Shown: positions 223-3,631 of the stretch, piece after piece
How the letters are laid out: each line of letters starts with the position of its first letter
How positions within the stretch are numbered: the first letter of the stretch is position 1
DNA from: Armatimonadota bacterium
GTDB taxonomy: Bacteria > Armatimonadota > UBA5829 > DSUL01
Length of the DNA stretch: 53,930 bases
Assembly: GCA_039811685.1 (NCBI GenBank)
Contig: JBDHZC010000010.1
Coordinates: forward strand, 1 to 53,930
Direction: 5' to 3'
Program-made: the position numbers and the translations under genes
Notes under the pieces: model-generated
Told to the model about the DNA's origin: nothing
Database searches by the model: none
What the model saw: the letters and a program-made list of their open reading frames with translations, nothing else

Positions 223-294
223 AGCCCACGACGGGAGTCGGACCCGTGACCTCCTCTTTACCAAAGAGGTGCGCTACCACTGCGCCACGTGGGC
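223..294 (-). tRNA. tRNA-Thr(GGT)
   Basis: Minus strand GCCCACGTGGCGCAGTGGTAGCGCACCTCTTTGGTAAAGAGGAGGTCACGGGTCCGACTCCCGTCGTGGGC folds as a cloverleaf with anticodon GGT; CCA not encoded. Confidence 0.93.
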
Positions 295-375: not shown

Positions 376-461
376 TGGTGGGGGGAACAGGATTCGAACC
401 TGTGTAGGCGTTCGCCGGCAGATTTACAGTCTGCTCCCTTTGGCCGCTCGGGCATCCCCCC
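376..461 (-). tRNA. tRNA-Tyr(GTA)
   Basis: Minus strand GGGGGGATGCCCGAGCGGCCAAAGGGAGCAGACTGTAAATCTGCC...GGTTCGAATCCTGTTCCCCCCACCA; long variable arm, anticodon GTA, encoded CCA. Confidence 0.97.
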
Positions 462-552
462 GCGCAAAGCCAGATCGACAGGCGAGCGCAGTTTATTTAC
501 TAATCAGCTATCGCACCGCGAACTCGGCAACAAAAAGCACCCACCGGGCGAT

Positions 553-612
553 ATTCTACTCCACTACCGGAAGGCGCTGCAACAGTCTACCATCTTGCGC
601 GCGCGTGTGCAA
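553..612 (-). promoter_or_regulatory. Tandem sigma70-like promoters for tRNA-Tyr/tRNA-Thr/tuf
   Basis: Minus strand TTGCAG-N18-TAGAAT (582-553) and TTGCAC...TAGACT (612-585) upstream of tRNA-Tyr. Confidence 0.5.
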
Positions 613-871
613 GAGTATCCTCGATATTATGGGCAATCCCGCACTACTTGTGAAGAGCAGCCTCTCACAGAACAAGCCGTATTGAGCACGAACTCCAAAG
701 CAGGCGCCTCTCCTTTGTGACAAGAGCCGCAGGACTCCGAAATCAGCCGCCATACCTCGCCACCAAGCTAGGCGTGCTGAGGCCCCATTCAGCAAGGCGT
801 TGTCTGTTGCTAGTGGCTGCAACGATGCGCAAAGCTAGCGAACAATTGGTCAGAAATGTTCAGAAAACCTC

Positions 872-900
872 TTGACAGGGCGGAGGAGCAGGACTACGCT
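872..900 (+). promoter_or_regulatory. Sigma70-like promoter pointing into the repeat array
   Basis: TTGACA (872-877), 17-nt spacer, TACGCT (895-900). Confidence 0.6.
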
Positions 901-1043
901 AACAAAAATAGCTCATCGCCGTATTGGGCGCAGGCCCGGCAAAGCGCCTGGTGGACCGCAACCCAATGCCGCCACTACCGCTAGCCTTCGGAGGGGGTGC
1001 AGACAAAATACGATGAATAAAGTAATAGTGCGGCTCTTGAATA

Positions 1044-1123
1044 TTTCGGGATTTCCGGGTTGGAGCCCGGTCTTATCCGGGTTCTGCAAGTCTCAATGTC
1101 CAACCCTCAAATCCCGAAACACC
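1044..1123 (+). repeat. Type A palindromic unit, copy 1 (forward), followed by a 40-nt tandem duplication of its right arm to 1165
   Basis: TTTCGGGATTTCCGGGTTGGAGCC - 30 nt - GTCCAACCCTCAAATCCCGAAACACC. Confidence 0.92.
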
Positions 1124-1268
1124 GAATAAGTCTCAATGTCCAACCCTCAAATCCCGAAGCACCGAGATTTTACTGTCGCCACTGCGTCCGCTTGGTGAGC
1201 ATCTGTTGGACGCCGGTGGGTTTACCTGGGGCCTTGGCGCTCGGTGTAAACACCACCCTCGACTGTTT

Positions 1269-1348
1269 GGTATTTCGGGATTTGAGGGTTGGATGTGATC
1301 GCTCTCGGAGTAACGGGCAATCCTGGCTCCAACCTGGAAATCCCGAAA
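1269..1348 (-). repeat. Type A palindromic unit, copy 2 (reverse, unique core)
   Basis: GGTATTTCGGGATTTGAGGGTTGGAT - GTGATCGCTCTCGGAGTAACGGGCAATCCT (30 nt) - GGCTCCAACCTGGAAATCCCGAAA. Confidence 0.92.
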
Positions 1349-1362
1349 TGAGGGGCGTGCCG

Positions 1363-1398
1363 TTCAATGCCTCCAGGTTGGGAAACCTGGAGGGATGA
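1363..1398 (+). repeat. Type B hairpin repeat, copy 1
   Basis: TTCAATGCCTCCAGGTTGGGAAACCTGGAGGGATGA; 10-bp stem CCTCCAGGTT/AACCTGGAGG. Confidence 0.92.
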
Positions 1399-1438
1399 CA
1401 AAATACGATGAAAAAAGTAATAGTGCGGCTCTTGAATA

Positions 1439-1518
1439 TTTCGGGATTTCCGGGTTGGCGCCCGGTCTTATCCGGGTTCTGCAAGTCTCAATGTCCAACC
1501 CTCAAATCCCGAAACACC
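1439..1518 (+). repeat. Type A palindromic unit, copy 3 (forward), right arm duplicated to 1560
   Basis: Same 30-nt core as copy 1; one substitution in the left arm. Confidence 0.92.
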
Positions 1519-1560
1519 GAATAAGTCTCAATGTCCAACCCTCAAATCCCGAAGCACCGA

Positions 1561-1898
1561 GATTTTACTGTCGCCACTGCGTCCGCTTGGTGAGCATCTG
1601 TTGGACGCCGGTGGGTTTCCCTGGGGCCTTGGCGCTCGGTGTAAACACCACCCTCGACTGTCCCGCCAATGTCGGCGACTTCGCTAGGAACATGAGAGGT
1701 CTTGGGTGGTGGCTGAGTACGGTGATCGGTGGCGGGATAATCGTCGGAGGGCCCATCAATTTCCAACCGACGCCGATATTCGGCGTGTTGCCGGTACCTG
1801 GGCCGCCGAACTGGCTAGGAGGGCAGATTGGACTCAATATAGGTGCTGGTGCTTGCTGGGCGTTCGTTTTGGAGGAATTCGAAGGCGGCCCGATCTAG
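1561..1898 (+). pseudogene. 5'-truncated gene fragment, possibly the C-terminal tip of a polymorphic toxin
   Basis: Open frame ending ...GGGIIVGGPINFQ...GGQIGLNIGAGACWAFVLEEFEGGPI*, Gly/Cys-rich and hydrophobic. Its upstream part is repeat DNA, and it is followed 2 nt later by a small membrane gene and an Rhs fragment. The toxin call rests on context. Confidence 0.45.
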
Positions 1899-1900
1899 CT

Positions 1901-2416
1901 ATGGAACCGATAACACGCGGACAAGGCCGGGCCACGGAACAAGCTGCTTTTCCATTGACCTTGGACTATCGCGGGTGGATGGTGTACGTGGTCGCCACCC
2001 ATCCTTACCAAGGGGCGCTGTGGCTGACGCTCGTTACGGTTTTTGCATGGTCGGATGGCCAGCTTGCGTTGCGGGGGAAGATACTGCTGGCCTTGGCCTG
2101 TCTAGCACTACTGGTCTACAGCCGGCGGACGGCCCTGCGCCTGCCGACACGAATCGTGCTGTATGACGATTATTGCGAACTGTATCGCCTGCACGGTGCC
2201 CCCACGCTTGTCCATTTGGACAGCGTCTTACACGTGAGGCAGGCGCACGTGTTTATACTCCACCTGTCCATTGTCTGGACAATGGTCGAGTACTGCGGGG
2301 ACAGCGGCTACAACTGGTTCTTTGTACACAAGAGGCTGCCCGGCTACGCGAAGCTCATGGCGAGAATAGCAGCCTGCAGGCCGGCGCGGGAGCCTGCCGA
2401 TGGAGCTACGGCGTAG
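1901..2416 (+). CDS. Small membrane protein, candidate immunity protein
   Basis: ATG at 1901 just after the TAG at 1896-1898; two hydrophobic segments followed by a beta-rich soluble tail (171 aa). Confidence 0.6.
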   Translation: MEPITRGQGRATEQAAFPLTLDYRGWMVYVVATHPYQGALWLTLVTVFAWSDGQLALRGKILLALACLALLVYSRRTALRLPTRIVLYDDYCELYRLHGAPTLVHLDSVLHVRQAHVFILHLSIVWTMVEYCGDSGYNWFFVHKRLPGYAKLMARIAACRPAREPADGATA

Positions 2417-2679
2417 ACGGCCAACTAACGAAGCTGACGTGGCCGTCGTCCTCGTCGCCGCAGGTACAGGTGCAGTACATTTACACGAAGAACGGCCTGC
2501 GCAAGGAGAGCAAGCTGGGAGACATGGGCAGTGGGTACTACGTGACCAGCTACAGTTATGACACCCAGAACAGGCCCGGCGCAATCAGCCATGCCTATGG
2601 TACAAGCGGGAGTCGCTTTGCCGGCGTGATCTACGACACGCTGGATGAGCTGGGCAACCCGAAGGTGGTCTATGAGTCA
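2401..2679 (+). pseudogene. Rhs/YD-repeat core fragment
   Basis: WSYGVDGQLTKLTWP...QYIYTKNGLRKES...TSYSYDTQNRP...YDTLDELGNP: successive YD-type repeats; no start codon of its own and cut off by a type A unit at 2680. Confidence 0.8.
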
Positions 2680-2759
2680 GGTATTTCGGGATTTGAAGGT
2701 TGGACGTGAGAACCGCCGAATCGCTGGAGAGCTATGGCTCCAACCTGGAAATCCCGAAA
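2680..2759 (-). repeat. Type A palindromic unit, copy 4 (reverse, unique core)
   Basis: GGTATTTCGGGATTTGAAGGTTGGAC - GTGAGAACCGCCGAATCGCTGGAGAGCTAT (30 nt) - GGCTCCAACCTGGAAATCCCGAAA. Confidence 0.92.
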
Positions 2760-2816
2760 GGAGGGGGACGCCGTGAAGTGGAAGAGCATTGACACTGGCG
2801 CAGGCTGCTACTGCAT

Positions 2817-2852
2817 TTCAATGCCTCCAGGTTCGGAAACCTGGAGGGATGA
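2817..2852 (+). repeat. Type B hairpin repeat, copy 2
   Basis: TTCAATGCCTCCAGGTTCGGAAACCTGGAGGGATGA. Confidence 0.92.
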
Positions 2853-2982
2853 ATATCGCAATCGTTGTACAGATCCCTCGGGGGTCGACTGCTCACAGAT
2901 TCCTCGTGGAGGTGGCGAGCAATGAACCGCGTGTTCCTGATCGTCCTGTGGTCTTTGGCATCTGTCGTTGAGGGGCGTGCCG

Positions 2983-3018
2983 TTCAATGCCTCCAGGTTG
3001 GGATACCTGGAGGGATGA
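2983..3018 (+). repeat. Type B hairpin repeat, copy 3
   Basis: TTCAATGCCTCCAGGTTGGGATACCTGGAGGGATGA. Confidence 0.92.
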
Positions 3019-3057
3019 AAAAACACCATGAAAAAAGTACTAGTGCGGCTCTGAATG

Positions 3058-3137
3058 TTTCGGGATTTCCGGGTTGGAGCCCGGTCTTATCCGGGTTCTG
3101 CAAGTCTCAATGTCCAACCCTCAAATCCCGAAACACC
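3058..3137 (+). repeat. Type A palindromic unit, copy 5 (forward)
   Basis: Matches copy 1 including the core; no arm duplication. Confidence 0.92.
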
Positions 3138-3170
3138 GAAAACAATGTCCTCCTGCGTGGCTGAAAAGAT

Positions 3171-3386
3171 GTGTGGTCAATGCGCCTGTCACTGAGGCCG
3201 ACGGGGCCGCCTAGCCGCAGCCAGCGCTGGGCGGCCTGCATCAACTTGGCGCTCGGCATAGCGGGCTTGTGCATGGCCACCGCCGGGCCAGCGGCGTTCG
3301 GTGCAAAGGAATTTGCCGTGGCGGGGCTAGCTATTGCCGGCATTGTGAATGTGGCCATCGGCGTCTATGTGCTTCTGCGGCGCTAG
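3171..3386 (+). CDS. Small two-TM hypothetical protein, candidate immunity protein
   Basis: 71-aa ORF with two hydrophobic helices ending LLRR*; follows a short ORF tail ending TGA at 3164. Start may be ATG 3180. Confidence 0.5.
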   Translation: MWSMRLSLRPTGPPSRSQRWAACINLALGIAGLCMATAGPAAFGAKEFAVAGLAIAGIVNVAIGVYVLLRR

Positions 3387-3399
3387 GTGCAGCCTTATT

Positions 3400-3428
3400 C
3401 CATCCCTCCAGGTGTCCTCACCTGGAGG
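3400..3428 (-). repeat. Type B hairpin repeat, copy 4 (inverted, diverged)
   Basis: CATCCCTCCAGGTGTCCTCACCTGGAGG: reverse-oriented B with a changed loop and intact stem. Confidence 0.8.
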
Positions 3429-3451
3429 AGGCGACGGGGCATATTCAGGTA

Positions 3452-3487
3452 TTCAATGCCTCCGGGTTGGGAAACATGGAGGGATGA
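3452..3487 (+). repeat. Type B hairpin repeat, copy 5
   Basis: TTCAATGCCTCCGGGTTGGGAAACATGGAGGGATGA. Confidence 0.88.
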
Positions 3488-3559
3488 AAGCAGCCTCGCG
3501 AGCCGGAGCGTGGTTAAGAGTCTTTTGGTGGGAAAAGCGAGGGGCTGGGCGGTGGCATA

Positions 3560-3631
3560 AGCCGACGACAGGAATCGAACCCGCAACCGGCTGTTTACAA
3601 AACAGCTGCTCTACCATTGAGCTACGTCGGC
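3560..3631 (-). tRNA. tRNA-Thr(TGT)
   Basis: Minus strand GCCGACGTAGCTCAATGGTAGAGCAGCTGTTTTGTAAACAGCCGGTTGCGGGTTCGATTCCTGTCGTCGGC; anticodon loop TTTGTAA. Confidence 0.95.

Follow-up and report, generated by a model that had tools for sequence, protein, structure and literature searches.

The window analysed here is a 53,930-nt stretch of the genome of an Armatimonadota bacterium (contig JBDHZC010000010.1 of assembly GCA_039811685.1), which carries near its left end, between two tRNA genes, an array of palindromic repeats interleaved with fragments of Rhs polymorphic-toxin genes. Judging from sequence comparisons, the array probably arose as insertion sequence (IS)-like units encoding a REP-associated tyrosine transposase (RAYT; REP, repetitive extragenic palindromic), together with solo hairpins, inserted into, nested within and eroded non-essential Rhs orphan DNA between the tRNA genes. 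The co-localisation of Rhs remnants with the repeats is real and constitutes the most interesting aspect of the locus: using the open reading frames (ORFs) of relatives' Rhs loci as queries, we located five RHS-derived remnants in the genome, and all five (5/5) lie inside clusters of three hairpin families, A, B and C, which by our estimate make up ~0.6% of the genome. Below, G000 denotes the genome of the window, G002, G004, G030, G035 and G039 are other genomes compared, and C-numbers are contigs; features of the array are collected in Table 1.

Three families of REP-like palindromes and two RAYT genes

Family A is a 76-nt hairpin composed of two 21-nt arms and a 34-nt spacer, with folding energies of -18.5 to -23 kcal/mol (z -4.7 to -5.8). 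The initial annotation, made from the letters of the window, correctly noted that A alternates in orientation but missed that its polarity is fixed, running from a CC arm through the spacer to a GA arm, and that the spacer comes in three subtypes (A-i, A-ii and A-iii). Otherwise, the order, orientation and spacings of elements given in that annotation were reproduced, including the exact spacings of 57 and 130 nt. Genome-wide, 34 A half-sites at two or fewer mismatches make up 15 complete hairpins, with no hits for backwards-read control patterns. Family B is a 28-nt REP-like hairpin (9-bp stem, 6-nt loop, GATG tail) with 21 sites at three or fewer mismatches, the backwards-read controls again yielding none; both families clearly exceed what chance would give. 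B also occurs as inverted doublets, both in the window (3398-3487) and in double-hairpin units on C5 (72-81 kb). Seven of these units punctuate a gene array at C5:72018-80706, each being an inverted doublet of B-like hairpins built as CATC-stem-loop-stem, about 28 nt, stem-loop-stem-GATG, which is the REPIN-type build (REPIN, REP doublet forming a hairpin) of the B family. The third family, C, combines arms GATGCTGCGGGAAT with a 38-39-nt spacer; the GATG/CATC ends are common to B and C. Its hairpins directly abut the RAYT gene on C3 (C3:184559-184624 and C3:185235-185300), and ~12 further C pairs were found on C1, C3, C5 and C11, none of them in the window.

The A and B copies are concentrated at ~10 places on C1, C3, C5, C9, C10 and C11. 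Among the 53 genomes of the class, the A pattern was found in 19, including none of the five genomes from the window's own family, and B was present in seven, as dispersed singletons. The absence of A from these five genomes, together with arms that are nearly identical between families, suggests that RAYT-A has spread horizontally. In G035, the 363 A half-sites (about 180 A copies) are mostly isolated hairpins on many contigs, and 24 of the 26 complete A copies listed there are separated from their nearest listed neighbour by over 2 kb.

Two genes of the genome encode HUH/Tyr proteins, RAYT-A on C5 and a second RAYT on C3, which are 31% identical to each other. Both cover the whole of the NCBIfam model NF047646 (REP-associated tyrosine transposase), with E values of 3.2e-21 and 1.9e-21, whereas the IS200 model reached E values of only 0.11 and 0.0024 and Pfam Y1_Tnp stayed below its cut-off. 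The best solved structure for the two proteins is that of Escherichia coli TnpA-REP (4ER8), and the HUH and Y-x-H-x-N-P motifs are present as MPTHVHLLV / YIHANPVRRGLV and MPEHIHVLV / YMHNNPVKRGLV. RAYT-A is flanked by a reverse A-iii hairpin upstream and a forward A-i hairpin downstream, that is, in inverted orientation. Of its nine non-self orthologues (54-66% identity), four are flanked by full A-type hairpins and seven have A-like arms next to them, the A-flanked orthologues belonging to four other genera. C-type hairpin pairs, in turn, flank 5 of the 11 non-self relatives of the C3 RAYT, at five loci in four other genomes. The commonest 16-mers in the flanks reach 9 and 12 copies for RAYT-A and 4 and 8 copies for the C3 RAYT, a modest excess over 3000 random 200-nt windows, 99% of which had three or fewer copies. 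A search for loci related to RAYT-A returned three loci and was uninformative. Family B, which lies on either side of the C3 RAYT as B' and B, was considered as the cognate repeat of this gene and rejected, as it is the C hairpins that abut the gene and its orthologues. The commonest 16-mers of the whole genome (29 copies, outside the window) tile a ~36-nt unit resembling a CRISPR repeat.

By these sequence comparisons, A, B and C are REP/REPIN-type palindromes, with A tied to RAYT-A and C to the C3 RAYT. The suggestion of an enzyme in trans was supported in that RAYT-A, the partner of A, is encoded elsewhere, on C5. RAYT-A is multi-copy and has multiplied as a whole unit, and thus behaves like an IS. 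In G039, a genome of the same class that is 68% complete, RAYT-A copies are often arranged head to tail (G039:C41:1-4500 and G039:C87:14000-20000), and one contig carries at least five copies with a 681-nt period and 98-99% identity. Such tandem amplification is unusual, since classical RAYTs are described as single-copy (PMC5581495).

Decayed RAYT units in the array

The 57 nt separating an A from a B copy in the window proved to be the 5' untranslated region (UTR) and first 15 codons of RAYT-A, starting with a GTG at 2773 and cut by B. Positions 2676-2816 are 91.5% identical to C5:24563-24703, the start of the intact RAYT-A. The statement that no RAYT lies in the window therefore holds for intact genes and fails for this gene start. 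Since the 57 nt are the start of a dead RAYT-A copy, the blocks running from a reverse to a forward A read as decayed RAYT units. The brackets in the initial annotation are accordingly turned around: A(-)...A(+) encloses a decayed RAYT, and what had been taken as bracketed cargo is the DNA between successive units.

The composite of A-iii, RAYT start and B (2677-2853) recurs at C11:880-1055 (93% identity) and C3:183617-183791 (91%). Altogether, seven RAYT-A 5' remnants were found in the genome. In four of them, at window 2773-2816, C11:960, C11:193 and C3:183711, the gene breaks off right behind one shared codon (GGCTGCTACTNCAT); the interrupting element is B in three cases and A-ii in the fourth. 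This codon may represent a preferred insertion or cleavage site. One further 5' remnant is cut by C, and 3' remnants are present on C9 and C5. Within the window, 1002-1266 is duplicated at 1397-1661 (99% identity) and 1349-1521 at 2969-3140 (95%); owing to the former duplication, the first cargo does no more than repeat the opening ~100 nt of the second. The 40-nt linker leading from B to A-i occurs three times in the window, and positions 3398-3451 are 91% identical to C3:184455-184508.

Two further arrangements were observed outside the window. At the end of contig C9 (C9:135631-136152), an A-i and a RAYT-A 3' remnant are duplicated in tandem (237 nt at 98.7% identity, 285-nt period), resembling the 265-nt duplication of the window. 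A fragment at C5:23778-23955, wedged between A-i and A-ii beside RAYT-A, is 100% identical over 178 nt to C11:48123-48300, the 5' end of an intact IS110-family element that starts right after B/C elements, which suggests that this element inserts at these palindromes.

Rhs-derived DNA between the units

The second cargo had been interpreted as a toxin C-terminal tail, an immunity-position gene and a YD/RHS fragment, and searches against Rhs loci confirmed its Rhs derivation. Window 1566-1868 matched the extreme C-terminus of a 1937-aa RHS open frame of G002 that carries RHS repeats too (E value 4.7e-8). In pairwise comparison, the two share 33% identity over 104 aa (E value 5e-8), entirely after the DPAGL motif, indicating that the tail corresponds to the variable toxin domain; the DPxGL motif is missing in the window, as the 5' end of the toxin ORF is cut by A-i. 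The translation of 2398-2682 retrieved 21 matches from a library of 1.84 billion proteins, some of them long proteins with multiple repeats, with PF05593 detected in all five long matches scanned. This fragment, which alone falls below the Pfam cut-off, is 40% identical to residues 1416-1512 of the G002 RHS protein, and within the class it matches only RHS genes of a sister genus in the same family (42-43% identity). For the 171-aa ORF between the tail and the RHS fragment, a homology search retrieved only the ORF itself and a feature-based search gave leads only. Its counterpart in G002 is a 156-aa ORF of similar size in the same position, with two membrane segments and no recognisable similarity in sequence (E value of 0.13). 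The G002 order of RHS gene, 156-aa ORF and orphan rhs fragment equals the window order of toxin tail, 171-aa ORF and RHS fragment.

The two overlapping ORFs further to the right (3145-3386) gave only a weak DUF3040 match, with no other copy in the genome and no match in the relatives' Rhs loci, and tblastx of 462-3560 against these loci returned nothing for 462-1001 or 3141-3400. Pfam searches with nine ORFs of the window produced weak matches only. A word-index search (proteins of up to 2000 residues) gave the toxin tail and the YD fragment no match among longer proteins; HMMER and tblastn later retrieved relatives for both, and the candidate explanation of the cargo as ORFan junk was dropped once exhaustive searches showed the Rhs homology. 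The cargo is single-copy in the genome, with no segment repeated outside the local 265-nt duplication, and nothing shows the capture or mobilisation of cargo that had been proposed.

Rhs remnants co-localise with the repeat clusters

The assembly contains no intact RHS gene. Two of the five RHS-derived remnants are in the window and the other three are on C3 and C11 (Table 1), and the truncated RHS ends abut a repeat within 12 nt in four of the five cases, in line with the early observation that fragments end at repeat boundaries. The immunity homologue joined to the toxin tail on C11 shows 38% identity (E value 1e-15). The link between repeats and toxin fragments drawn in the initial annotation is thus upheld across the genome. 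A and B are of REP type, few in this genome and dispersed in other genomes, and the Rhs remnants co-localise with them. Between clusters, only repeat composites have been copied, never cargo. Eight regions with intact RHS loci in G035 and G030 (~80 kb) contained no A and no good B, the closest being one weak B-like match with three mismatches. As these two genomes are rich in A (about 180 and about 34 copies, respectively), intact rhs genes do not appear to be targeted as such. The flanks of the G004 and G002 Rhs loci showed no recognisable synteny with the clusters of G000. No tyrosine recombinase was found near any cluster, the only two PF00589 matches of the genome being located on C2.

Table 1. 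Features of the array and its borders (window positions), and RHS remnants on other contigs
Feature	Position	Strand	Remarks
tRNA-Thr(GGT)	223-294	-	First tRNA of the window
tRNA-Tyr(GTA)	376-461	-	Left border of the insert
Promoter-like TTGACA-17-TACGCT	872-900	+	-10 matches the consensus at 3/6 positions
Duplicated block	1002-1266	+	42-nt linker, A-i, 40-nt tandem copy of the right arm (1127-1166), copy of the toxin-tail start (1167-1266)
A-i copy	1044-1119	+	
A-ii hairpin	1269-1348	-	A copy at 1273-1348; type found upstream of RAYT-A remnants; 87% identical to C5:23560-23682
RAYT-A 5' UTR remnant (GAGGGGCGTGCCG) and B hairpin	1349-1398	+	B block 1363-1398, hairpin start 1370
Linker, A-i, 40-nt right-arm duplicate	1399-1561	+	A-i copy at 1439-1514
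5'-truncated Rhs C-terminal toxin domain	1566-1898	+	RHS remnant (tail, 1566-1868); stop codon 1896-1898
171-aa ORF, two hydrophobic segments	1901-2416	+	Immunity-gene position
RHS/YD-repeat core fragment	2398-2676	+	RHS remnant (repeats); 3' end cut by A-iii
A-iii hairpin	2679-2759	-	A copy at 2684-2759; type found upstream of intact RAYT-A
RAYT-A 5' UTR and 15 codons	2760-2816	+	Cut by B
B, 116 nt, UTR remnant, B	2817-3018	+	B blocks 2817-2852 and 2983-3018, hairpin starts 2824 and 2990; UTR remnant 2969-2982
Linker and A-i	3019-3133	+	A-i copy at 3058-3133; right end of decayed RAYT unit
16-codon Cys-rich mini-ORF	3145-3195	+	Overlaps the 71-aa ORF
71-aa ORF, two hydrophobic segments	3171-3386	+	
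Inverted B'/B doublet, REPIN-like	3398-3487		38-nt arms, 30 nt apart; same build as the C5:72-81 kb units
B' block (variant of B)	3398-3433	-	Hairpin start 3405
B block	3452-3487	+	Hairpin start 3459
tRNA-Thr(TGT)	3560-3631	-	Right border of the insert
RHS remnant	C3:184323-184463		Cys-rich tail and lipoprotein-like ORF in front; ends exactly at B'
RHS remnant	C3:186212-186370		Follows an ORF that has two membrane segments; a C hairpin lies 75 nt away
Toxin tail	C11:46516-46632		Joined to immunity homologue C11:46163-46516; 3 nt between the tail start and a B-like hairpin

A lineage-specific insert between tRNA genes

The interval between tRNA-Tyr and tRNA-Thr(TGT), which had been put forward for comparison across strains, spans 3098 bp in the window and 52-198 bp in the six relatives compared (from the same family and class), all of which keep the same three tRNAs. 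Accordingly, ~2.9 kb of the interval is lineage-specific. Alignment of the relatives' tRNA spacers with the window produced only chance-level matches of 7-12 nt, and the insertion point can therefore not be placed. The array is not skewed in GC content (0.53-0.62 versus 0.57-0.60 for the contigs).

Origin of the array

The most plausible scenario treats A as the end hairpin of IS-like RAYT units arranged as A(-), rayT, A(+), of which one intact copy lies on C5. The window would then contain two or three decayed units, at 1269-1521 and 2679-3133 and possibly, as a right end, at 1002-1119, their rayT genes having been destroyed by the insertion of B. By analogy with E. coli TnpA-REP, the HUH/Tyr enzyme would cut and rejoin single-stranded hairpin DNA and thereby spread the hairpins, and insertions would be tolerated in toxin remnants that are non-essential. 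Recombination or deletion at the many repeat copies would have removed most of each toxin ORF and created the local duplications, which would also explain why segment boundaries fall at repeats. The immunity-position ORFs would be left intact between toxin stubs, and may have survived by selection or by chance.

Several points weigh against this scenario. The genome has 15 complete A and 21 B copies clustered at ~10 places, whereas classical REPINs are abundant and dispersed, and our search turned up no enzyme for B. The scores of the two RAYTs, 75.8 and 76.5 bits, are just below the NCBIfam cut-off of 80 bits, and RAYT-A is multi-copy, with one intact gene, seven 5' remnants and the 3' remnants in this genome and 66 tblastn matches in G039. 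The immunity role of the 171-aa ORF is putative, being assigned from position and build only. Decay in situ presupposes that an Rhs island had earlier inserted into the tRNA operon, and nothing observed points to such an event. Finally, the presence of 5/5 RHS remnants in clusters and of 4/5 truncated ends at repeats would also be expected from cassette shuffling.

The last point leads to an alternative that we regard as unlikely, namely a cassette system in which hairpin-bracketed modules of toxin tail and immunity gene are excised and reinserted by a RAYT, or by host recombination between REPINs, and orphan immunity genes are collected. Three or four modules in three loci (window 1566-2676, C3:183762-184485, C11:46011-46664 and perhaps window 3145-3386) do share a build of repeat, toxin tail, small ORF, in some cases an RHS fragment, and repeat; one of them resides inside a tRNA spacer that is short in relatives. 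The recognisable ORFs of the array are all on the + strand, composite repeat blocks have been copied between loci at 91-93% identity, and RNA-library contigs hold 1288-1618 and 3111-3447, as presence only. However, cassettes in circulation are hard to reconcile with cargo of which no segment occurs twice beyond the local 265-nt duplication, or with brackets as mixed as A/A, B/B', A/B' and B/C, which define no end pair. In other genomes, A and B are dispersed singletons, and the intact RHS loci of G035 and G030 are devoid of them; the window has no tyrosine recombinase, both PF00589 matches being on C2; its GC content is unskewed and its promoter weak. Moreover, with toxin ORFs three to four times longer than immunity ORFs, it would be unremarkable for five random insertions all to hit toxin parts (estimated p of about 0.25-0.3). 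Were it true, the cassette system would collect immunity genes by means of REP elements instead of a tyrosine recombinase and would be a functional analogue of integrons and rAID-1 arrays. A different route of arrival, in which a RAYT or recombination at shared REPINs brought in a repeat-bracketed segment, shades into the capture idea and is similarly improbable.

Promoter-like sites and transcription

The array had also been described as promoter-led. The TTGACA-17-TACGCT site at 872-900 does exist, but its -10 is weak and it was not called by the promoter scanner, and such sites are not enriched (four promoter-like sites versus 1.9 +/- 1.3 in shuffles). The best promoter-like site is on the minus strand at 654-626 (TTCACA-17-CATAAT, 10/12 matches), ~165 nt upstream of tRNA-Tyr, and it could drive tRNA-Tyr now that the insert separates this gene from tRNA-Thr(TGT). 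RNA-library contigs of two studies hold 1288-1618, 3111-3447 and other pieces, which attests presence only, without strand or transcript ends. Two RNA runs did not cover 534-1001 (promoter and leader) and 1938-2873, which is no evidence of silence.

It is very unlikely that the array is a transcribed regulatory or RNA element, be it a promoter-led non-coding RNA or a set of hairpins acting as terminators or stabilisers for the tRNA operon or the small ORFs. The hairpins of the array are indeed stable (-12 to -23 kcal/mol, z -4.4 to -5.8), the RNA-library contigs overlap its hairpin-rich parts, and the minus-strand site lies upstream of tRNA-Tyr. Yet the same hairpins flank transposase genes and recur at unrelated loci and in other genera, no T-runs follow them, an Rfam scan of the window detected the three tRNAs and nothing else, and the contigs reveal neither strand nor transcript ends.

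Support for the assembly

The metagenome-type assembly consists of 15 contigs, several of which end in A elements (the end of C9 and the start of C11 break inside them). Two independent sludge metagenome assemblies both carry 416-1048, 1524-2705, 2824-3003 and 3111-3427, and 2679-2805 was recovered in one and 3460-3588 in the other, in all cases with 0 or 1 differences, the sludge contig pieces ending inside repeats only. As the unique blocks and their run-in to the adjoining repeat recur in two independent studies, the local junctions are real; the order of the repeated blocks rests on one assembly and cannot be checked with short contigs. The stretch is present at half or more of the sampled words in 14 listed runs, and the 20 rows holding all or part of it correspond to 12 studies, mostly of sludge or bioreactor metagenomes. 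Alternative joints (462>3571, 1123>2679, 2853>3398 and two go-back joints) were each seen in a single contig, the shorter side of which spans 30-35 letters; their ends lie in tRNA or repeat sequence, and they most likely derive from other organisms or other repeat copies. Given the recurrence of the unique blocks and run-ins and the breadth of runs and studies, an array order produced by collapsed or chimeric repeats is extremely improbable, even in an assembly whose contigs break in A elements and for which short contigs cannot check the order.

Relation to known systems

The claim that the array matches no known system did not stand. Its constituents are of known kinds, REP/REPIN elements with RAYT genes in clusters resembling bacterial interspersed mosaic elements (BIMEs) on the one hand and Rhs orphan modules on the other; it is the repeat families that are new. 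As in the REPIN/REP-RAYT systems of Pseudomonas fluorescens SBW25 (PMC3116915) and of E. coli (TnpA-REP, 4ER8), the hairpins consist of two inverted arms and each RAYT is flanked, in inverted orientation, by its own repeat family. PMC3116915 already describes mixed REPIN clusters, made of tandem REPIN copies with their flanks and an ordered mix of two families, with a cluster beside each RAYT, and the 265-nt duplication and the recurring block of B, linker and A-i fit this description. Differences lie in the low, clustered copy number in G000 (in G035 the copies are dispersed), in the multi-copy, IS-like RAYT-A, and in arms that are not themselves palindromic REPs; the GTAG tag was not seen.

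Among Rhs orphan loci, G002:C69 and G004:C1:2.19-2.23 Mb have the same ingredients of RHS repeats, toxin domain, small membrane ORF and rhs fragment, in G002 in the same order; unlike them, the window lacks the DPxGL junction and most of the toxin ORFs, with repeat clusters in their place. In the BIMEs of enterobacteria, REP units of alternating orientation are joined by fixed linkers into mosaics. The array resembles them in its alternating palindromic units and recurring linkers, and differs in that the families are unrelated, transposase remnants are enclosed and kilobase-scale gene fragments lie between the repeats.

The rAID-1 arrays of Bacteroidales (bioRxiv 10.1101/471110) are similar in having co-directional small genes in immunity-like positions with repeats between them. 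Of four defining features taken from that text, the array shares the co-directional genes and differs in the other three; it has no XerD-like recombinase and no low-GC cargo. An integron would have an IntI recombinase and co-oriented attC sites, whereas there is no IntI here and the repeats are dispersed, alternating palindromes. The array departs from CRISPR in its spacings of 30-1170 nt, mixed orientations and two repeat families. The IS200/IS605 family is set apart by the transposases, which are not of IS200 type (E values of 0.11 and 0.0024 versus ~1e-21 for the RAYT model). A literature search pairing Armatimonadota with RAYT or REP, judged by titles and the starts of abstracts, returned nothing relevant.

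Implications

Erosion of Rhs orphan DNA by RAYT units and hairpins would explain an odd-looking array without a new mechanism. For a little-studied lineage, the analysis records three families of REP/REPIN-like repeats and two RAYT genes, of which RAYT-A behaves as an IS would and not as a domesticated single-copy gene. Moreover, the locus would clearly illustrate how selfish palindromes can dismantle polymorphic-toxin loci and yet leave immunity-position ORFs intact, which bears on the persistence of orphan immunity genes. Finally, with all five RHS remnants of the genome co-localised with the repeats, the choice between passive erosion and cassette shuffling becomes directly testable.

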